Assembly (NCBI GenBank): GCA_044070495.1
Contig: JBIPSI010000036.1
Location: 1-50,104 of the forward strand
Origin: Spirulina sp.
Lineage (GTDB): Bacteria; Cyanobacteriota; Cyanobacteriia; Phormidesmidales; Phormidesmidaceae
Length of the DNA: 50,104 bases
Direction: 5' to 3'
Shown: one piece after another, positions 4,267 to 12,129 of the stretch
How the letters are laid out: every line of letters starts with the position of its first letter
How positions within the stretch are numbered: the first letter of the stretch is position 1
Position numbers and translations under genes: made by a program
Notes under the pieces: generated by a model
Seen by the model: only the letters and a program-made list of their open reading frames with translations
The model's database searches: none
What the model was told of the DNA's origin: nothing

Positions 4267-5202
4267 ATGCTGACCCTCGAAAACCTCTGTAAGTCCTATG
4301 GTTCTAAGCCCGTTCTGCAAGATTTGAGCTTGGCCCTTGAACCGGGGGAAATCTACGGCCTGCTGGGGCCAAACGGAGCCGGAAAAACCACCACCATCAA
4401 CATCATTTGCGGCCTACTGAAGGCCGATGCTGGGGCCGTTTACCTGGGTGGCCAACCCGCCAGTGCCCGTACCAAGGGCCAGGTGGGCATCGTCCCCCAG
4501 AGCAATTTGCTCTACACCAGCCTCTCCTGCCGGGATAATTTGGCCTTTCTAGGGCGGCTGTATGGGCTGTCTCGCCAAGACTGTCGGCGGCGCATTGAGG
4601 TGTGCCTGGGGGCGGTGAACTTGCTGGAGAAGCGCCATACCCCCGTAGAGCGCCTTAGCGGCGGCATGCAGCGGCGGCTGAGCTTGGCGGCGGCCATGCT
4701 CCACAAACCCCAACTGGTGATTTTGGACGAACCCACCACCGGGTTAGACATTGAGTCCCGCCAGGATGTGTGGCAACTGATCCGCCAACTGAGGGAGATG
4801 GGGGTGACGGTGCTGCTCACCAGCCATCTGTTCGACGAGGTGGAGCGTCTCTGTCAGCGCATTGGCATCCTCAAGCAGGGGCGCATTGTGGCCGAGGGCA
4901 GCCTAGACACCCTGCGGCAGCGCATCCCCGCCCACGAAATCGTTACCCTCGACACCCCCGACCCCGACAGCGCCATCCAACGCGGGAATCAGTTGGGCTA
5001 TGCCCACCGCTACTACGGCGGCGAACTCGCCTTTTGGGTGCCCGACCAGCCCGACCTCAAGGAACTGATTGCCCGCTTCGATGGCGTCCCCCTCGACTCC
5101 ATTGCCCGCCATCCCATCAAGCTAGAGCATGTCTACCTAGAGGTAACCCGCCAAGCAGTCATCCCCTCCCCTGAGGTGGGGCGGCTGTCCTCCGTGGGAT
5201 AA
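4267..5202 (+). CDS. ABC-2 type exporter ATP-binding subunit
   Basis: Walker A GPNGAGKT, signature LSGGM, Walker B ILDEPT and H-loop SH. Confidence 0.92.
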   Translation: MLTLENLCKSYGSKPVLQDLSLALEPGEIYGLLGPNGAGKTTTINIICGLLKADAGAVYLGGQPASARTKGQVGIVPQSNLLYTSLSCRDNLAFLGRLYGLSRQDCRRRIEVCLGAVNLLEKRHTPVERLSGGMQRRLSLAAAMLHKPQLVILDEPTTGLDIESRQDVWQLIRQLREMGVTVLLTSHLFDEVERLCQRIGILKQGRIVAEGSLDTLRQRIPAHEIVTLDTPDPDSAIQRGNQLGYAHRYYGGELAFWVPDQPDLKELIARFDGVPLDSIARHPIKLEHVYLEVTRQAVIPSPEVGRLSSVG

Positions 5203-5369
5203 CCAGGGCGAGGATCGAGGTCTGGCTATCCCATAAGATTTGTAACCCACCCCAGCTATCTGAATGCTGCACGGTTGAAAGAACGGTTTAAGATGAGAGC
5301 AAGGGTTACATCCCTTCACACTTTACCCTTCACCTCCCACCTCTGTTTTCCCCTCTACCCGCTGGTGCC

Positions 5370-5600
5370 ATGTCGTTCTTTCGGTCTTATATTGCCCCGC
5401 TGCTGATTGTGCTCATTTTTGCCGTAGCCATGCTGGCGGTGAGTGCCCGCATCTTTTTGCCCAGCGACATGATGGCCCCCGCCCCCCTTGAGGAACCTGT
5501 GTCTACCCTGCCAACAGATCTCCTGGGGGCTAGCGATGGAGGATCCGTTGATCTGTCCGAATTCATCCATGGCCCTGCGGCTTATCAGGTCGAGGGCTAG
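5370..5600 (+). CDS. Small single-TM cyanobacterial membrane protein
   Basis: YIAPLLIVLIFAVAMLAVSARIFLPSDMMAPAP: a hydrophobic helix followed by a conserved-looking motif. Confidence 0.7.
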   Translation: MSFFRSYIAPLLIVLIFAVAMLAVSARIFLPSDMMAPAPLEEPVSTLPTDLLGASDGGSVDLSEFIHGPAAYQVEG

Positions 5601-5707
5601 CCTACATTTCATGAACCTTAGGGATACCAAGTCCTAAGGGTTCGGTACCCTGTGGAAGGTTGGGGGGCCATGACCCACCCGCTCTTTTTCGCTGTGGGGT
5701 GCCTATC

Positions 5708-7546
5708 GTGTCCGCATTGCCGTTTATTATCCAAAAGTTTGTCTTCCAGCCGGAGGGGCAGGCCAACATTGTTGACCTAGACGATGCCACGGGCAATCCG
5801 GGCACCATTCCGGGCTACTTTGTGATGAGCAGCGCCCCACCCAACATTGATCCCACCCCGGAGGAACTGGAGGGGATCAATGAAGCCCTCCAGCAGGAAC
5901 AGGCGCGGCAGGGGGTAGAGGAGATTGCCGATCATCTGCATCGGATGATGGCCGCCAACCCAGAGGGCCATGCCGAACTGGTGATTACGGTACATGGCTA
6001 CAACACCAGCCGCCGAGGGGTAGAGGCTTGGTATAAAAACATTTTCAAGTCCATCAACCGCCACGATGATGCCATTCGGGACAAGGCTAACCACGTTTTC
6101 ATCGGCTATCGCTGGCCCTCGGAAAACGTCAAGCTGAGCCGATTCCCAGAGGCGTTGCTGGCTCTACCGCCCCTCCCCCGCGATATTTTGGCGTCTGGGA
6201 TGCTGGGGTTTGTGCTGCTGGTTATTATCCAATTCCTAGCCTTTGGGGCCACCCTGTGGGGATGGTTGGTTAGTGCGGTGCTCGGCCTTTTGACGGCCCT
6301 AGGGCTGCTGATGTTTGCCCTGGTGGTGCTGCGGCTGGTGGTGTATTTTCGAGATAACTACCGCGCCAACAACTTTGGGGTGCTGGATCTAGTAGAACTG
6401 CTGCGCCAGATTGACCACGCCATTGTGCAGCGCACCGCCGAAGAGATGTTTCCCGGCATGGCGCAGGCTTCTCCCACCGATCAGGCGAAGGCCATGGCCC
6501 AGGCCCAGAACTACTGGGGGCGGCGTTCTCGCAATAAGGTGAAGCTGAGCTTCATTGGCCACAGCATGGGGGCCTTTGTGGTCACCAATGTGGTGCGGAT
6601 TCTATCGGATGTGTTTGACAGCAGTTCCGTCAACAAGCGCCCCGATAGCGACGTGGGGGATGTGTTTCGCCTAGAGCGCTTGGTGCTAGCCTCCCCGGAT
6701 ATTCCGGTGCTGACGATTATCACTAGTCGGGCCAACTTCCTGGCATCGTCCCTGCGGCGATTCTCCGAGTCCTACCTGTTTTCCAGCGAGGGAGACATTG
6801 CCCTACGCATTGCCTCCACCGCCGCCAACTACATCGCCTTCCCCAGCCGCAGCCAGTCTCGTGGTTATCGCCTGGGCAATGTGGCCCTCAAAAATCCCTC
6901 CGGCACCCGTGCCGACTACGGCCTGCTGAACCTGCCCCACCTAGAGCAAGACTTCCCCCTCGATCTCCCCATCAGCGTGGCCCTCGCCCAGGCCCAGGAT
7001 CGGGTGATGGAGATGCTTTTCCTCACCTTCCAGCGGTTTCAGGCCCAGGGGGTGGTCACCCTGGCCAGCCTATTCCAGGAACAGACCAGCAGCCCCAGCA
7101 ACCAGGCCACCATCGCCGATCTGTTCACCTACTTCGACTGCACCGACTATGTGGATGTGCGCTACAACCCCGCCGACAACACCTGTTCCGCCCAGCCCCT
7201 GGGCCTACTCACCAGAGCCAAGGGCAAACCCGTGCTCAAATCCCTAGACTATTTCCTGCTCACCCTCGACTATGCCACGGGCAAGCGCGATGTTCACGGC
7301 GGCTACTTCCAGGGACAATTCAGTCAACAACTCCTCTACAGGCTGGCGTTTCTCGGCTTTGGCGGCTACCTCAAAACCTTCGATGCCGACCCCCAGGTGG
7401 CCCTCAGCCAGTTTCACCTCGCCTGCCAAGACAAGCACATCCAGGGCTATCTCTCCCCCTTCCGCTACCGCGTGGATATCCAGGGTGGCAACCGCCAAGG
7501 GGCCTTGAGGGATATGTTGAATGCCATCGAAGAAAAGGCTTCCTAG
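5708..7546 (+). CDS. Alpha/beta hydrolase (DUF900-like) with inserted transmembrane hairpin
   Basis: VHGYN oxyanion motif, YRWPS, nucleophile elbow GHSMG, LASPDI and C-terminal VHGGYF. Start uncertain (GTG 5708; ORF open from 5660). Confidence 0.75.
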   Translation: MSALPFIIQKFVFQPEGQANIVDLDDATGNPGTIPGYFVMSSAPPNIDPTPEELEGINEALQQEQARQGVEEIADHLHRMMAANPEGHAELVITVHGYNTSRRGVEAWYKNIFKSINRHDDAIRDKANHVFIGYRWPSENVKLSRFPEALLALPPLPRDILASGMLGFVLLVIIQFLAFGATLWGWLVSAVLGLLTALGLLMFALVVLRLVVYFRDNYRANNFGVLDLVELLRQIDHAIVQRTAEEMFPGMAQASPTDQAKAMAQAQNYWGRRSRNKVKLSFIGHSMGAFVVTNVVRILSDVFDSSSVNKRPDSDVGDVFRLERLVLASPDIPVLTIITSRANFLASSLRRFSESYLFSSEGDIALRIASTAANYIAFPSRSQSRGYRLGNVALKNPSGTRADYGLLNLPHLEQDFPLDLPISVALAQAQDRVMEMLFLTFQRFQAQGVVTLASLFQEQTSSPSNQATIADLFTYFDCTDYVDVRYNPADNTCSAQPLGLLTRAKGKPVLKSLDYFLLTLDYATGKRDVHGGYFQGQFSQQLLYRLAFLGFGGYLKTFDADPQVALSQFHLACQDKHIQGYLSPFRYRVDIQGGNRQGALRDMLNAIEEKAS

Positions 7547-7606
7547 GCGAGAGGGCTGGGCTGGGTGGTCGAATTGGCAGGGATCGAGACCCATGGTTTT
7601 GGCCCA

Positions 7607-7618
7607 TTTCTTAAGAAA
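7607..7618. promoter_or_regulatory. 12-bp perfect palindrome upstream of the 2Fe-2S/PAS/SpoIIE operon
   Basis: TTTCTTAAGAAA. A TAGACT -10-like hexamer lies further downstream (~7659). Confidence 0.3.
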
Positions 7619-7699
7619 ATCCTTGGCTTCCGGCCCGTCTGCCCCCGCCCCCCCTGTTTAGACTAAAGGGGTTGCCTTTGCCCTTCATTCCACAGCGCC

Positions 7700-7975
7700 A
7701 TGGCGAAAGAAAACCTGTTTCTTTGTATGGGGTCGGCCTGTCACCAAATGGGGGTCTACGATGTGTTGCCCCAGCTTCAGGCGTTAATTCAGGCCCACAA
7801 TTTGGATGACGTGATTGAACTGAAGGGTTCCTTCTGTCTAGAAACGTGCAGTCAGGGGATTGTGATGAAGTTTCAGGATCATCGCTTTTTGGGCATTAGT
7901 CCTCAAAATGTAGAAACAATTTTCGTCGAGCGTATTTTACCAATGATTCAGGCGGCCCTTGCCCACGCCCAGTAG
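7700..7975 (+). CDS. Thioredoxin-like [2Fe-2S] ferredoxin (HfsA/NuoE-C-like)
   Basis: CMGSACH ... ELKGSFCLETC, i.e. two Cys pairs C-x4-C and C-x3-C; 91 aa. Confidence 0.85.
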   Translation: MAKENLFLCMGSACHQMGVYDVLPQLQALIQAHNLDDVIELKGSFCLETCSQGIVMKFQDHRFLGISPQNVETIFVERILPMIQAALAHAQ

Positions 7976-7985
7976 GGATTTTGTT

Positions 7986-8615
7986 ATGGTAAACCCTGCC
8001 TTTCCCAACCCCTCCCCCCATCCCAAAAACGAGGATACCGATCCTCAAGATCACCATCACCTTTGGCAGTTGTTGTGGGAATACGACCCCAATGGCCTGC
8101 TGGTGGTGGATGCGGATCTCTATATTAAGCTGGTGAATCCGGCCTTTTGTCGGATGTTTAAGGTGCAGCCTGAGGATGTTATCGGACAGCCTGCTAGCAC
8201 CATTTTGGACGACGTGAGTGATTTTCGACGAGTGTGGGAAACGGGGGAAGTCTATCGCGGTAAGCCAAGGGAATTTGCCCAGTACAATCTATTAGTCAAT
8301 CAGGTGATTTTTCCCATCCCCGATGAGGGGATTGTCGCTTGCATTATGGCGGACTACAGTCATCAACTGATCGAGCGGCGAGAACTAATGGCCATCAAAG
8401 AAACCACCATTCAGCAGGTAAACCAGGTGGTGGATAACCAAATGAAGGTCGTCCAGGAAATTGCCGGGTTACTAGGGGAAACCACGGCCCAAACCAAGGT
8501 GAGTCTTTTAAAAATTGTGCAAATGCTCCAGCACGAAGCGGTGGATGCCGTGGCGGTGAGGCCCGTGGATAGGGGAGGTGCCGACGCAGCGCGTGCCAGG
8601 GTGGAGGACGGCTAG
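7986..8615 (+). CDS. PAS-domain protein with a HydS/HfsB-like C-terminal helical tail
   Basis: PAS start DPNGLLVVD...VNPAFCRMF...VIG; tail VVDNQMKVVQEIAGLLGETTAQTKVSL. ATG at 7986. Confidence 0.8.
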   Translation: MVNPAFPNPSPHPKNEDTDPQDHHHLWQLLWEYDPNGLLVVDADLYIKLVNPAFCRMFKVQPEDVIGQPASTILDDVSDFRRVWETGEVYRGKPREFAQYNLLVNQVIFPIPDEGIVACIMADYSHQLIERRELMAIKETTIQQVNQVVDNQMKVVQEIAGLLGETTAQTKVSLLKIVQMLQHEAVDAVAVRPVDRGGADAARARVEDG

Positions 8616-8618
8616 CCC

Positions 8619-9785
8619 ATGACCGTAGACACCTTCATTGACATCCACAGCGCCAGTCTGAATAAGCGGGGTGAGGAACTCTGTGGCGATAAGGTCAAGT
8701 ACCTGAAAACGGGCACCAAAACCACCGTGGTGCTGTCCGATGGCCTGGGGAGCGGGGTGAAGGCCAACATTTTGGCCACCCTGACCACGGAAATTTTAAT
8801 CACCATGCTAAATGCCGATGTGCCCCTGGAGGAGGTACTGAAAACGGTGATCGCCACCCTGCCCATTTGCCAGGTGCGAAAAATTGCCTATTCCACCTTC
8901 ACCATCCTCTGGGTGGATGGCCACACCAACCGCTTCAAGGTGATTAATTTCGATAATCCGCCCCCGGTGTTTTGCCATCGGGGCCACGTCGAACCCCTGG
9001 CCATGGAAACCCAGGAAATCCTAGGCCGCAAGCTGCAATCCGCCGAGGGCCAACTCGACCGAGGGGACTTCTTGGGGGCGATTAGCGACGGCGTGCTCTA
9101 TGCCGGGATGGGCATGACCATGAACTTTGGCTGGGGCTGGGACAACATCGCCCAGTACGTAGAAGGGGTGATTGGCAGTCAGGCCCACACGGCGCGATCC
9201 ATCGTCAAGCGGGTGATTGACCACACCTTCGAGCTATACCAGGGCCAGGTGGGCGACGATGCCACCATGGTGGGGCTGTATATGCGCCAGCGCCACCCGC
9301 TGATGATTTTCACTGGCCCCCCCCTGGAGGACAGCCAGGACGAAACCTTTGTGAATCGGCTGCTGAATTTTGAGGGGCGCAAGGTAGTGTGCGGCGGCAC
9401 CACGGGCAACATCGTGGCCAGCTACCTGGGGGAAATCGTCGAGATGGATCTGTCCACCATGCGGCGAGAACTGCCCCCCATTGGTCGCCTCAGCAGTGTG
9501 GATCTGGTCACCGAGGGGATTTTGACCCTCTCCAAGGCGACGGAATACATTCGCCAGTGCCACTGCGACCTAGGCCGCCTGCGCTTCGACAACAATGGAG
9601 CCTATCTGCTGGCCTGCGAAATTCTCCAGGCCGACTCGATTCACTTTTTGGTGGGGCAGAGCATTAACGAGTTTTACCAAAACCCGCTGTTGCCTAAGAA
9701 TATTTCCATCCGCCGCAGCCTGATTGAGGATCTCGTCACCGTACTGCGCCGCTTCCAAAAGGAGGTAACCATTGAGTATTGTTAG
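8619..9785 (+). CDS. SpoIIE/PP2C-type Ser/Thr phosphatase (HfsC-like)
   Basis: Metal-binding motifs ELCGD, LSDGLGSG, ISDG and GDDAT; C-terminal domain KVVCGGTT...VDLVTEGILTL. Confidence 0.85.
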   Translation: MTVDTFIDIHSASLNKRGEELCGDKVKYLKTGTKTTVVLSDGLGSGVKANILATLTTEILITMLNADVPLEEVLKTVIATLPICQVRKIAYSTFTILWVDGHTNRFKVINFDNPPPVFCHRGHVEPLAMETQEILGRKLQSAEGQLDRGDFLGAISDGVLYAGMGMTMNFGWGWDNIAQYVEGVIGSQAHTARSIVKRVIDHTFELYQGQVGDDATMVGLYMRQRHPLMIFTGPPLEDSQDETFVNRLLNFEGRKVVCGGTTGNIVASYLGEIVEMDLSTMRRELPPIGRLSSVDLVTEGILTLSKATEYIRQCHCDLGRLRFDNNGAYLLACEILQADSIHFLVGQSINEFYQNPLLPKNISIRRSLIEDLVTVLRRFQKEVTIEYC

Positions 9786-9874
9786 CCTCAGTGAAGTCTT
9801 GGCCTATCCGCCGTGCTAAACCAAAGCTATCTCGTATAGCTTGTATATTTGTAGAATCTTAGGAATCATTGTTT

Positions 9875-9945
9875 GGGAATTCTTGTAGAAATCACCGACC
9901 GAGAAGGGAATCGTCGGCAATTTTAGGCCCATCCTTGGGCAATCT
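9875..9945 (+). promoter_or_regulatory. Two candidate SigJ/SigF-type (J-box-like) promoter elements upstream of pilT2
   Basis: GGGAATTCT (9875-9883) and GGGCAATCT (9937-9945), compared with the GGGaAtacT consensus. Confidence 0.35.
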
Positions 9946-10019
9946 AAACTGTAGTCCGGGTGCCTTTCCTCTGCCCACCGCTGACCCGGATTGTCTACCC
10001 ATCACGGAGAACTGGTTCT

Positions 10020-11360
10020 ATGGCTGAGTCATCGCGTGTTCCGGCCAACCCCAATGTCCCCCCCCGTCCGGCGGCACCGTCCGCCGCCCCAGGGCAGCGG
10101 CCCCCATCTGCCCCACCGCCCCAGGGACAACGGCCTCCTGCGCCGCCCCAGGGCCAGCAGCGGCCCCCGGCCCCACCGCCCCAATCTCCCCCCCCCCAAC
10201 CCTCAGGCCAGGGACAGCAGCGCCCTCCGGCAGCGGCTCAGCACCGTGCCCCTAGCCCGCCGCCCATGCCCACCGCCGCCGAAACCATCAAGGTGGGGGG
10301 CAGCCCCACCCTGGAGCATATCGTGCGGGAAGCCTTTGATAAGGGCTTTTCCGACATCCACCTGGGCGTAGGCGAAATACCCCGGTTCCGGGAACGGGGG
10401 GAAATTAGCCCGACGGAATACCCCGTCACCGACGAGGCCACCTTTTACAGTTGGCTAGAGGAAATTCTGCGGCCCGACCAAATCCAGGAATTTCGCCAGA
10501 GCCTGGACTTTGACGGTGCCGCCCAGTACGACTTCACCCGGATCCGGATCAACATTTTTGACTCCCTGCGTGGCCCTGCCATGGTGCTGCGTCTGATTCC
10601 GGTGAAAATTCTCACCCTAGAGCAATTGGGCTTCGATGGCATTTTTAAAGAGGTCTGCCACTACCACAAGGGCCTAATTCTGGTGACGGGGCCAACCGGT
10701 TCCGGGAAATCCACCACCATGGCGGCGATGATTGACTATGTGAACAGCGAGATGCCGAAGCACATCATCACCATCGAAGACCCGGTGGAATTTGTCCACA
10801 CCAGTAAACGTTCCCTGGTGAAGCAGCGGGAAGTGGGGATGCACACCCACAAGTTCGATAACGCCCTGAAAGCCTCCCTGCGGGAAGACCCGGACATCAT
10901 TCTGGTGGGGGAAATGCGGGACAAAGAAACGGTGAACACCGCCCTCAAAGCCGCCCAAACCGGACACTTGGTGATGGGAACCCTACACACCAACAGCGCC
11001 GTAAAGACGGTGGAGCGGATCCTCAACCTCTATGAGCCCGACCAGCAAGCCCCGATTCGGGTAGCCCTGGCGGAATCGCTGATCGCCGTCATTGCCCAGG
11101 GTCTCTGCCGCACCACCGACGGCAAACGGGCCGCATTCCACGACATCTTGATCAACACCGACGCCATTAAGGACTACATCCTGCGCGGTCAGTTGGACGA
11201 GGTGGAAGCGCTGATTCCCAAATGTACCTTCGACGGCATGTGTACCATGAACCAGTCCCTCTACGCCCTCTACGAATCGGGGCGGATCACCGAGGAAACG
11301 GCCCTGGAAATGTCGCCGAAACAGAACGAAATGGCCCAGATGTTGCGGGGCCGTGTCTAG
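10020..11360 (+). CDS. pilT2: Type IV pilus retraction ATPase PilT2 (Pro/Gln-rich N-terminus)
   Basis: SDIHL, GPTGSGKST, TIEDPVE, LREDPDIILVGEMRD and GHLVMGTLH; AIKDYIL in place of AIRNLIRE; Pro-rich extension. Confidence 0.9.
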   Translation: MAESSRVPANPNVPPRPAAPSAAPGQRPPSAPPPQGQRPPAPPQGQQRPPAPPPQSPPPQPSGQGQQRPPAAAQHRAPSPPPMPTAAETIKVGGSPTLEHIVREAFDKGFSDIHLGVGEIPRFRERGEISPTEYPVTDEATFYSWLEEILRPDQIQEFRQSLDFDGAAQYDFTRIRINIFDSLRGPAMVLRLIPVKILTLEQLGFDGIFKEVCHYHKGLILVTGPTGSGKSTTMAAMIDYVNSEMPKHIITIEDPVEFVHTSKRSLVKQREVGMHTHKFDNALKASLREDPDIILVGEMRDKETVNTALKAAQTGHLVMGTLHTNSAVKTVERILNLYEPDQQAPIRVALAESLIAVIAQGLCRTTDGKRAAFHDILINTDAIKDYILRGQLDEVEALIPKCTFDGMCTMNQSLYALYESGRITEETALEMSPKQNEMAQMLRGRV

Positions 11361-12129
11361 GGTGCCTCGATCTACCCCCACCACCGCCGCCAGTTTTAAG
11401 GGGCTAGCCCTCTTCACTCCGGGCGGCGACTGCGTCTACTGCATCGACCAGCGGAAACGCAACCACTGGCACCTGGATCTCTGTGCGGCGCTGCAAACCT
11501 CCCTGGGGCTAGCCGAGCCGCCCTATTTCCTGTTGCCCTGCTTCACCGCCACCGTAGATCGCTGGATAGACCCCAGGAATCAAGCCATCGTCACCGTGGC
11601 CGAAGCCTACCCCCGTGCCCTGCGCTATCAAACCCTGCTCAACGTCCTGTTTGACACCAACGATCTGGAGTGGCAGCCCAACTACAGCCACCACGAAGAC
11701 TGCTCTGTTTGGGTGATCGAGTCCTACCGAACGACCTTTCCCCAACTGTGGGAGCGTCACAATCTAATCCGGCGGGTGGAGGCGAGCTGGGTTAGCCCGC
11801 TGGGTGTTGGCTTTTTCCCTGCCGCTGTTAGAGACAGTGCCTCCGGGGATATCCCAGAAGAGGAGACCAGCCATGTGTTCAAACTGTTTGTGAGCGGGGC
11901 CGACACCACCGCCACCGAGCACATGCTGCGGGTGCTGCGCAACACCCTGGAGGCCACTCTACCTCACCCCTATACCCTTCATCTTATCGACGTTCTCACC
12001 CATCCCGATGAGGCCGAAACCAACAACATTACGGCCACTCCCACCCTGATTCAGGTGTCGCCCCCGCCCGCCCGCCGCATTGTGGGTCAGTGGCCTAGCC
12101 CCAACCAACTCAGGCAGCTCTTGGGTTAG
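11353..12129 (+). CDS. KaiB-domain protein (N-terminal extension plus C-terminal KaiB-like fold)
   Basis: C-terminal FKLFVSG...[23 protein letters not shown]...RRIVG; N-terminal [12 protein letters not shown]. Confidence 0.8.

Follow-up and report, generated by a model that had tools for sequence, protein, structure and literature searches.

The window examined here is a 50,104-nucleotide stretch of a Spirulina sp. genome (assembly GCA_044070495.1, contig JBIPSI010000036.1, forward strand). Between positions 7700 and 9785, it carries three co-oriented open reading frames (ORFs) on the + strand, which are separated by gaps of 10 nucleotides (7976-7985) and 3 nucleotides (8616-8618) and encode a small [2Fe-2S] protein, a PAS protein and a SpoIIE-type PP2C phosphatase. 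An earlier, sequence-only reading of this tightly packed cassette had likened it to the Hfs/HydS sensory cassette of anaerobes. This likeness held up: alignment pairs the three proteins, order preserved, with the 2Fe-2S, HydS and PP2C proteins of [FeFe]-hydrogenase loci. From these alignments, we regard the window cassette as a real homologue of that triad, collinear with it and missing the hydrogenase domain. In oxygenic cyanobacteria, its relatives mostly lie in the gene cluster of the bidirectional [NiFe] hydrogenase (hox).

The three proteins

The first gene (7700..7975, + strand) encodes a thioredoxin-like protein of 91 amino acids (aa) that resembles HfsA and the small proteins encoded upstream of HydS. 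Searched as a single sequence, it gave a weak match to Pfam 2Fe-2S_thioredx (E 1e-3, 19.4 bits, below the cut-off of 24.8). All 17 aligned homologues retain its cysteines C9, C14, C46 and C50 (pattern C-x4-C ... C-x3-C), and the family profile matched the C-terminal [2Fe-2S] domain of Thermotoga maritima HydA (7p5h_A, residues 568-641) at E 2.8e-11 and NuoE/HydC-type chains at E 1e-6 to 1e-4. The cysteine pattern and profile matches identify a thioredoxin-like [2Fe-2S] ferredoxin of the NuoE C-terminal domain type, for which cluster binding is predicted. A 2003 study, cited in PMC10055695, reportedly characterised a [2Fe-2S] protein encoded in the hydrogenase operon of T. maritima.

The second gene (7986..8615, + strand) encodes a 209-aa protein; it opens with ATG at 7986, and an in-frame TTG at 7959 is the earliest possible alternative start. 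Searches of Pfam and NCBIfam returned only PAS matches for this protein (PAS_9, 4e-8). The alignment of its family (A3) has an invariant Cys55 and a near-invariant C-terminal helix. The H-cluster domain (Fe_hyd_lg_C, PF02906) was not found in the 209 aa, and the protein is thus not a group C sensory [FeFe] hydrogenase; what it shares with the group C proteins HydS and HfsB is the C-terminal PAS domain with its conserved helix. The sequence-only reading had taken the PAS protein for the counterpart of HydS, which stands for the C-terminal signalling module and fails for the H-cluster domain.

The third gene (8619-9785) encodes a phosphatase of 388 aa. Residues 1-225 (8619..9293, + strand) form the SpoIIE/PP2C Ser/Thr phosphatase domain: residues 33-220 matched Pfam SpoIIE at 5.7e-18, the aspartate motifs (GD24, SD41G, D157G and GD213D214) show no variation across all 18 aligned sequences, and the AlphaFold2 (AF2) model of the domain (predicted local distance difference test, pLDDT, 87) had SpoIIE, RsbX and the RsbU domain of Rv1364c as its best Foldseek matches, with E-values down to 5e-14. 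Residues 226-388 (9294..9785, + strand) form a second domain, whose motifs C258-G-G-T-T262 and D295-L-x-T-E-G300 are invariant, also in alignments A4 and A5. Domain and alignment evidence thus confirmed what had been noted beforehand of these proteins: the four cysteines, the PAS protein, the intact aspartate motifs and the extra C-terminal domain with its CGGTT motif.

This C-terminal domain (163 aa) matched no Pfam or NCBIfam family. Its AF2 model (pLDDT 91) predicts a Rossmann-like alpha/beta fold without a family assignment: Foldseek gave no match at E<=1e-3, the best being methylglyoxal synthases (E 4.6e-3, template-modelling score 0.38-0.48); the best VIA-align scores went to FhcB (Z 9.7), NuoG (9.2) and formate dehydrogenase domains (~8), with a stated background of 7-8; and ESM Atlas returned only unnamed clusters of ~150 aa, with scores of 0.91-0.92. 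Complex prediction pairing the phosphatase (A1) with residues 22-190 of the PAS protein (A3) scored 0.02, that is, "no answer", and no conclusion was drawn from it. A scan of 7300-10200 for promoters and terminators gave counts at the level of shuffled sequence (2 vs 1.4 and 5 vs 4.0).

Homology to HydS loci and origin of the cassette

All three proteins can be compared with those of L087, a locus from a non-photosynthetic family of Cyanobacteriota (f34, genomes of 1.6-2.5 Mb). It begins with genes for a 2Fe-2S protein (76 aa), HydS (588 aa) and a PP2C phosphatase (385 aa) and continues with a second 2Fe-2S protein (94 aa), a group-B [FeFe] hydrogenase, HydC, HydB and HydA. This HydS contains Fer4, Fe_hyd_lg_C and PF04060 domains and a PAS-like C-terminal part; a Pfam PAS match itself was obtained for the HydS of the sister locus L086. 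The window [2Fe-2S] protein is 26% identical to the 76-aa protein (E 3e-12), the PAS protein aligns by BLASTP with residues 417-574 of HydS only (24% identity, E 4e-10), and the phosphatase aligns over residues 6-387 (30% identity, E 3e-54). A 162-aa ORF 3' of the L087 phosphatase had no Pfam, NCBIfam or PDB match and may not be a gene.

The same arrangement was found beyond this family. A scan led by a Clostridia-type phosphatase alignment (A5) covered 80 loci, among them those of Clostridium tetanomorphum, Ruminiclostridium sufflavum, C. acetireducens and a metagenome-assembled genome (MAG) of Acetobacterium woodii. A HydS with H-domain and PAS lay directly 5' of the phosphatase in 77 of them, the remaining 3 being cut by a contig end, and the small 2Fe-2S gene was also present in 59. 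By tblastn, the window PAS protein matched the C-terminal part of HydS in 80/80 loci of the HydS-type scan. The phosphatase belongs with the HydS-cluster phosphatases by its SpoIIE catalytic domain, by similarity over its full length including the C-terminal domain, and by its position 3' of the 2Fe-2S and PAS genes. This family is large: a profile search of 1.84 billion cluster representatives returned 572 relatives at E<=1e-30, of which the best 150 are nearly all 380-400 aa long and aligned end to end; close relatives number in the thousands (7996 of 7998 scored candidates), and named members include Acidobacteriota, Geotoga petraea, Proteiniclasticum and Lentisphaeria. These are therefore not generic PAS and PP2C proteins devoid of hydrogenase-associated synteny, since both HydS homology and hydrogenase synteny were found.

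Gene clusters of HydS, including hfsABCD of Thermoanaerobacterium saccharolyticum, share with the cassette the gene order and the three homologous proteins, phosphatase C-terminal domain included. They also share an association with NADH/ferredoxin-linked hydrogenases and alcohol dehydrogenase genes, as far as the accessible parts of PMC5707799 and preprint 10.64898/2026.10.06.756941 go; in Kiritimatiellia, according to the latter, hydS is accompanied by an alcohol dehydrogenase and a PP2C phosphatase. The likeness to HfsA, HfsB, HfsC and T. maritima hydS in particular rests on the other HydS loci and on the portions of PMC5707799 that were available. HydS differs in having Fer4, the H-cluster domain (PF02906) and the four-cysteine FeS domain (PF04060), whereas the cassette PAS protein keeps the PAS domain and C-terminal helix only. 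Cys55 is invariant in the clade without the H-cluster domain ("PAS-only"), whereas the one HydS compared has Ile at this position. A further difference is that the partner hydrogenase in cyanobacteria is the [NiFe] enzyme Hox.

A separate scan of species-representative genomes yielded 80 loci of the cassette itself, 69 of them cyanobacterial by sequence (65-98% identity) and 11 from MAGs of other phyla (49-59%). The FeS-PAS-PP2C order is kept in 72 of the 80; of the other 8, 5 are cut by a contig end and 3 (L029, L064 and L074) contain the phosphatase only. Genera bearing the cassette include Arthrospira/Limnospira, Planktothrix, Oscillatoria, Phormidium, Geitlerinema/Baaleninema, Coleofasciculus, Spirulina, Leptolyngbya and Nodosilinea. 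One locus labelled as an Actinomycetota MAG (L028) carries a cyanobacterial-type hoxEFUYH and the cassette, with 67-79% identity to the host genome, and groups within the cyanobacterial clade described below; it is probably a mis-binned contig.

The 11 non-cyanobacterial loci belong to Planctomycetota, Verrucomicrobiota, Chloroflexota, Ignavibacteriota, Desulfobacteraceae and Pseudomonadota, and each of the 11 genomes encodes at least one of two enzyme types, an [FeFe] hydrogenase or a Hox-like NiFe hydrogenase. An [FeFe] hydrogenase was found in 6 (G402, G405, G426, G427, G428 and, within the locus itself, L067) and not in the other 5, which are MAGs of unstated completeness; NiFe large-subunit matches are present in all 5. 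The large-subunit gene lies beside a NuoF-like gene in G401, G403 and G404, whereas in the Chloroflexota genomes G424 and G425, which also have large-subunit matches, it is HoxEF-like genes that adjoin the cassette instead. At the Chloroflexota loci L057 and L058, HoxE/F-like genes lie directly 5' and are 49-57% identical to the cyanobacterial ones. Elsewhere, the neighbours are those of [FeFe] enzymes: a radical-SAM gene (possibly hydE), a HydG-like gene, aspartase and HydF directly 5' of the cassette in L053; a group-B-like [FeFe] hydrogenase 3' of it in L067 and L076; the order 2Fe-2S, PAS-only protein (173 aa), PP2C, 2Fe-2S and group-B [FeFe] hydrogenase in L090 of the Thermotogota; and AdhE upstream with an adjoining group-B [FeFe] hydrogenase in L092 of Petrotoga. 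What the cassette's contexts have in common is a hydrogenase equipped with an NADH module of the NuoE/F type, irrespective of its metal site. Genes for alcohol dehydrogenase, pyruvate:ferredoxin oxidoreductase and acetyl-CoA synthetase-like (CoA-ligase/ATP-grasp) proteins also recur near the cassette in related loci.

Two side observations concern the small [2Fe-2S] protein. In a Planctomycetales MAG (L060, order HydA, Rex::[2Fe-2S] fusion, PAS, PP2C and three radical-SAM genes), the ORF that follows HydA and precedes the PAS gene (4559-5479, 306 aa) joins the cassette's [2Fe-2S] domain to a redox-sensing repressor of the Rex type (wHTH plus CoA_binding/Rossmann), which links the [2Fe-2S] domain to an NADH-sensing regulator. 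This was the sole instance seen; longer, fused forms of the FeS protein were searched for separately and none was found, which is weak evidence. In addition, L087 and L090 each have two small 2Fe-2S genes, the first preceding the PAS-bearing gene (HydS in L087, PAS-only in L090) and the second preceding the group-B [FeFe] hydrogenase just after the phosphatase. The small 2Fe-2S protein may be a general companion of genes of these types.

A FastTree phylogeny built from 180 phosphatases unites all 69 cyanobacterial rows in a single clade (support 99), which lies within a larger PAS-only clade (84 rows, support 99) and has the Ignavibacteria locus L056 and representative P0121 as nearest neighbours. 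A quick IQ-TREE tree of 71 rows agreed with this (SH-like approximate likelihood-ratio test 98 and 99) and placed f34 on the far side, among HydS-type representatives. Vertical inheritance shared with the non-photosynthetic Cyanobacteriota was considered and rejected: constraining Cyanobacteriia and f34 to group together costs 196.9 log-likelihood units (approximately unbiased [AU] test, p-AU 1e-48), though the group was chosen with a tree already in view. Under midpoint rooting, loci with a verified HydS-type context (f34, and a Clostridia-type clade with P0190) fall on either side of the root, which makes loss of the H-cluster domain in the PAS-only lineage the simpler reading, on contexts known for few representatives. 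The phosphatase phylogeny therefore supports a single horizontal acquisition of the cassette by oxygenic cyanobacteria from anaerobes, an event that is ancient and shared. Horizontal acquisition as such had been proposed from the sequence alone and is favoured by the tree and the AU test; that it might be special to this genome is not, as the event is old and common to many cyanobacterial families.

Association with the bidirectional [NiFe] hydrogenase

The sequence-only reading had described a cassette "without a hydrogenase" and, from this, a hydrogenase-independent sensor. The genomes give a different picture. The host genome has a complete hoxEFUYH operon, with hoxE, hoxF, hoxU, hoxY and hoxH on contig C51 and hoxW on C14, the cassette being elsewhere, on C36. 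Among the Cyanobacteriia examined, every cassette-bearing genome has HoxF, and the cassette mostly lies between hoxH and hoxW in the hox/hyp cluster. What does stand is the earlier statement that cyanobacteria are not known to make [FeFe] hydrogenases: neither PF02906 nor HydF was matched in the host genome (97% complete), and PF02906 was found in 0 of 175 oxygenic genomes sampled. The latter agrees with PMC5186783, which in its accessible parts reports no [FeFe] homologues in 130 genomes.

Gene order was assessed in 58 informative cyanobacterial loci, in which the cassette is complete and the upstream flank measures 2 kb or more. In 45 of them, hoxH lies 5' on the same strand, at a distance of 10-678 nucleotides in 43 and ~3 kb in 2; L004 and L007, which have shorter flanks, also show hoxH upstream. 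On the other side, hoxW (the maturation protease; TIGR00072, E 1e-18 to 5e-19, above the cut-off) is the next gene 3' in 52 of 69 cyanobacterial loci, followed in some by hypA, hypB and hypF. The common cyanobacterial arrangement is thus hoxEFUYH, FeS, PAS, PP2C, hoxW, hypAB; G014 has hoxE-F-(U)-Y-H, FeS, PAS, PP2C. Beyond hoxW, we noted three recurrent genes: one for an acetyl-CoA-synthetase-like protein (CoA-ligase/ATP-grasp plus GNAT; ORF of ~970 aa) in 9 loci (L016 and L034-L040 listed), one for pyruvate:ferredoxin oxidoreductase (~1190 aa) in 5 (L018, L028, L043, L046 and L070) and one for a CBS-CP12 protein (204 aa) in 9 (L043-L049 and L065 listed).

Co-occurrence was examined in 401 Cyanobacteriota genomes, of which families f1-f30 account for 175 and the remaining twelve families for 225. 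A search with the phosphatase profile (E<=1e-60) picked out 12 oxygenic Cyanobacteriia, the host genome included, and 126 non-photosynthetic members. PF02906, found in none of the 175 genomes, was present in 154 of the 225. As a marker of HoxF we used PF01512, which we take to be specific in Cyanobacteriia since their NDH-1 is presumably without NuoF; in the host genome, the PF01512 match falls inside the hox operon. HoxF was detected in 86 of the 175 genomes and in 12 of the 12 cassette-positive Cyanobacteriia; the chance of 11 independent draws all being HoxF-positive is ~3e-4, kinship being ignored. Within families, the 4 cassette-positive genomes of f14 are exactly the 4 HoxF-positive ones of 6, and the single cassette-positive genome is the only HoxF-positive one of 3 in f2 and one of 5 HoxF-positive among 25 in f3; f4 has 4 cassette-positive genomes, and all 6 of its genomes are HoxF-positive. 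PF01512 was also found in 18 of 18 genomes whose cassette locus has no adjoining hox, a short upstream flank or no FeS and PAS genes. By position and co-occurrence, then, the family behaves as an accessory of the hox cluster; in the window, the position is not that of the family.

In the host genome, the cassette has a DUF900 hydrolase gene on one side and a PilT-like ATPase gene on the other. The upstream neighbour (5660-7546), which is kept beside the cassette only in L001, encodes a DUF900-type alpha/beta hydrolase of 628 aa whose central part is hydrophobic. Downstream, 9960-11360 encodes a PilT-family ATPase (TIGR01420, 3e-137) with a Pro/Gln-rich N-terminal extension of ~115 aa, and 11353-12129, whose start overlaps the end of the ATPase gene by 8 nucleotides, encodes a 258-aa protein with a C-terminal KaiB domain (3e-17); this pair lies downstream of the cassette only in the closest relatives (L001-L003). 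The flanks of two independent assemblies match the window: L001 has an ABC transporter, the DUF900 hydrolase, the cassette and the PilT-like gene, and L003 has the cassette followed by PilT-like, KaiB-like and HisB genes. Guanine-cytosine content is continuous across the cassette, with no break. Since the same flanks recur independently and the base composition is unbroken, the contig is not chimeric here; nor, with the triad kept in 72 of 80 loci, is the grouping of the three genes due to chance.

The loci without adjoining hoxH are the window, L001, L003, L006, that of Spirulina subsalsa (L013), seven Coleofasciculus loci, L068 and L075. Since L004, L007 and L008, whose phosphatases are 84-89% identical to that of the window, retain hoxH upstream, the detachment from hox in the window's lineage is recent. 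The detached cassette is under strong purifying selection: compared with L001, L003 and L006, which share this arrangement, the ratio of nonsynonymous to synonymous substitution (dN/dS) was 0.03-0.05 in the phosphatase gene, 0.04-0.06 in the FeS gene and 0.05-0.10 in the PAS gene.

The host hox operon itself (C51, locus L085, 2900-13600) has an ORF similar to Zn-dependent alcohol dehydrogenases between hoxF and hoxU. The place directly 3' of hoxH, which in most relatives belongs to the cassette, is occupied by genes for a GIY-YIG protein, a restriction endonuclease of the Eco29kI type and a C5 DNA methylase; in this genome, the cassette may have been displaced from hox by a mobile restriction-modification unit. 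Lyngbya strains with other genes downstream of hoxH are described in the accessible parts of the hox literature consulted (PMC13421787, PMC5186783, PMC2674450, PMC3858816 and PMC10055695), in which the cassette is not mentioned.

A proposed redox input to Hox and its alternatives

We consider the cassette to be probably a descendant of the HydS cassette that lacks the H-cluster and serves as a redox signalling module for NADH/ferredoxin-linked (NuoE/F-type) hydrogenases. More tentatively, it could be a Ser/Thr-phosphorylation governor of the bidirectional (confurcating) [NiFe] hydrogenase and of dark fermentation, that is, a HydS descendant blind to H2 that reads ferredoxin/NADH poise through its [2Fe-2S] protein. 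Since the H-cluster domain is absent, the module would sense redox poise and not H2 itself. The small [2Fe-2S] protein would reach equilibrium with the pool of low-potential electrons, carried by reduced ferredoxin or by the HoxEFU clusters, a role suggested by its fusion to Rex in L060 and by its nearest solved relatives, the mobile [2Fe-2S] domains of bifurcating hydrogenases. The PAS protein, being the part of HydS that was retained, would act as the transmitter, reading the redox state of the [2Fe-2S] protein and switching the SpoIIE-type phosphatase; the Rossmann-like C-terminal domain may, as a guess, bring in a nucleotide signal such as NAD(H). The phosphatase would then dephosphorylate a phosphoprotein through which Hox and fermentative enzymes are controlled in their expression or activity. 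Such an output would parallel Hfs control of adhE in Thermoanaerobacterium, where, according to the accessible parts of PMC5707799, deletion of hfsA or hfsB raises adhE expression and ethanol yield and intact hfsC and hfsD are required.

Two other kinds of hydrogenase regulation bear comparison. The hox regulators LexA, CyAbrB1, CyAbrB2 and RpaA share with the cassette their presumed target, hoxEFUYH expression under changing redox; they differ in being DNA-binding transcription factors, unrelated in sequence. The accessible portions of a 2026 review (PMC13421787) list only DNA-binding regulators of hox and no Ser/Thr-phosphorylation component. HoxBC-HoxJ-HoxA of Cupriavidus (Ralstonia) follows the same logic, as a hydrogenase-derived sensor governs hydrogenase genes (PMC5707799, accessible parts), whereas its components are non-homologous, sense H2 through a complete active site and signal through a histidine kinase.

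Several observations weigh against a role as a hydrogenase module. The cassette is not beside hox in the window and 12 other loci, and the phosphatase occurs without upstream FeS and PAS genes in 3 of 69 cyanobacterial loci. The sample includes 76 HoxF-positive Cyanobacteriia without the cassette; Hox works without it, and the cassette is therefore accessory. The co-occurrence counts ignore kinship, except for the product of the within-family chances, which is ~0.004. The fold matches of the phosphatase C-terminal domain are at or just above background. Finally, no gene for a kinase or STAS substrate was found beside the cassette in any cyanobacterial locus examined, the HATPase_c_2 and STAS matches of the genome being on other contigs.

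This last point bears on a rather unlikely alternative for the output, in which the phosphatase acts by partner switching on a STAS anti-anti-sigma factor and thereby on a sigma factor with a broad dark/anoxia regulon, Hox being one target among others. The closest solved structures, SpoIIE, RsbX and the RsbU domain of Rv1364c, are in its favour, and the Bacillus partner-switching phosphatases RsbP (with RsbQ), RsbU and SpoIIE share the catalytic domain of the cassette phosphatase. RsbP is a PAS-controlled phosphatase that responds to energy state. These proteins differ in carrying N-terminal regulatory domains, whereas the cassette has a separate PAS polypeptide, a C-terminal Rossmann-like domain and no adjacent STAS or kinase gene. 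Candidate partners do exist in the genome: a whole-genome search gave 11 STAS and 12 HATPase_c_2 matches, including several small STAS proteins and three small RsbW-like HATPase_c_2 ORFs (open frames of 149-154 aa). However, none is on the window's contig (C36) or on that of hox (C51), and no STAS or kinase gene is conserved beside the cassette in the annotated loci, which leaves room only for unlinked partners.

It is unlikely that the cassette was co-opted after transfer as a redox, O2 or fermentation sensor with no functional tie to hydrogenase, as first proposed. The host arrangement, with the cassette between the DUF900 hydrolase and PilT-like ATPase genes and hoxEFUYH and hoxW elsewhere, would fit such a sensor, as would the twelve further cyanobacterial loci without hox upstream and the loss of the H-cluster domain, without which H2 itself cannot be the signal. 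What argues against it is that HoxF accompanies the cassette even so (12/12 and 18/18 cassette-bearing Cyanobacteriia), that hoxH and hoxW directly flank it in most loci (45/58 and 52/69) and that the PAS-only variant outside cyanobacteria adjoins hydrogenase or maturase genes.

The position between structural and maturation genes, together with the relationship of the FeS protein to the electron-transfer domain of HydA, its nearest solved relative, could also suggest that Hox uses the [2Fe-2S] protein as an additional subunit for electron transfer or assembly, with PAS and PP2C riding along. We regard this as very unlikely: the three genes stay together in 72 of 80 loci whichever type of hydrogenase is present, PAS and PP2C are signalling domains, the ORF in L060 joins the FeS domain to the regulator Rex, and Hox-positive cyanobacteria without the cassette are common. 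Nor is a decaying, functionless relic of the separation from hox credible, even with the cassette detached and GIY-YIG, Eco29kI-type endonuclease and C5-methylase genes in its place 3' of hoxH, given intact frames, every invariant motif retained and dN/dS of 0.03-0.10 against three relatives with the same detached arrangement.

The HydS-type arrangement was already known; its hox-associated cyanobacterial version without an H-cluster appears to be new. A search of the full-text literature, subscription-only papers and supplements aside, found no description of the cassette in cyanobacteria, in line with the earlier remark that no characterised cyanobacterial example was known, and no paper containing both "bidirectional hydrogenase" and "SpoIIE".

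The regulation and physiological role of the cyanobacterial bidirectional hydrogenase are long-standing questions, and the cassette, whose place is next to hoxH and hoxW in many filamentous genera that often form mats or blooms, offers a testable post-translational or redox input to Hox. Its distribution fits the report of Hox as a HydABC-like confurcating enzyme: in its accessible parts, preprint 10.64898/2026.06.25.734504 describes Synechocystis HoxEFUYH as bifurcating/confurcating, using NADH and ferredoxin through a HydBC-like module. In H2 biotechnology, the cassette could serve as a control knob, one that is apparently missing from the model strains. That a HydS-type module can work without the H-cluster, and with [FeFe] or [NiFe] partners, bears on what HydS systems sense. 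If the proposed role is right, one regulatory module would serve the NuoE/F-type bifurcating hydrogenases of anaerobes and cyanobacteria alike, whether their active site is [FeFe] or [NiFe].

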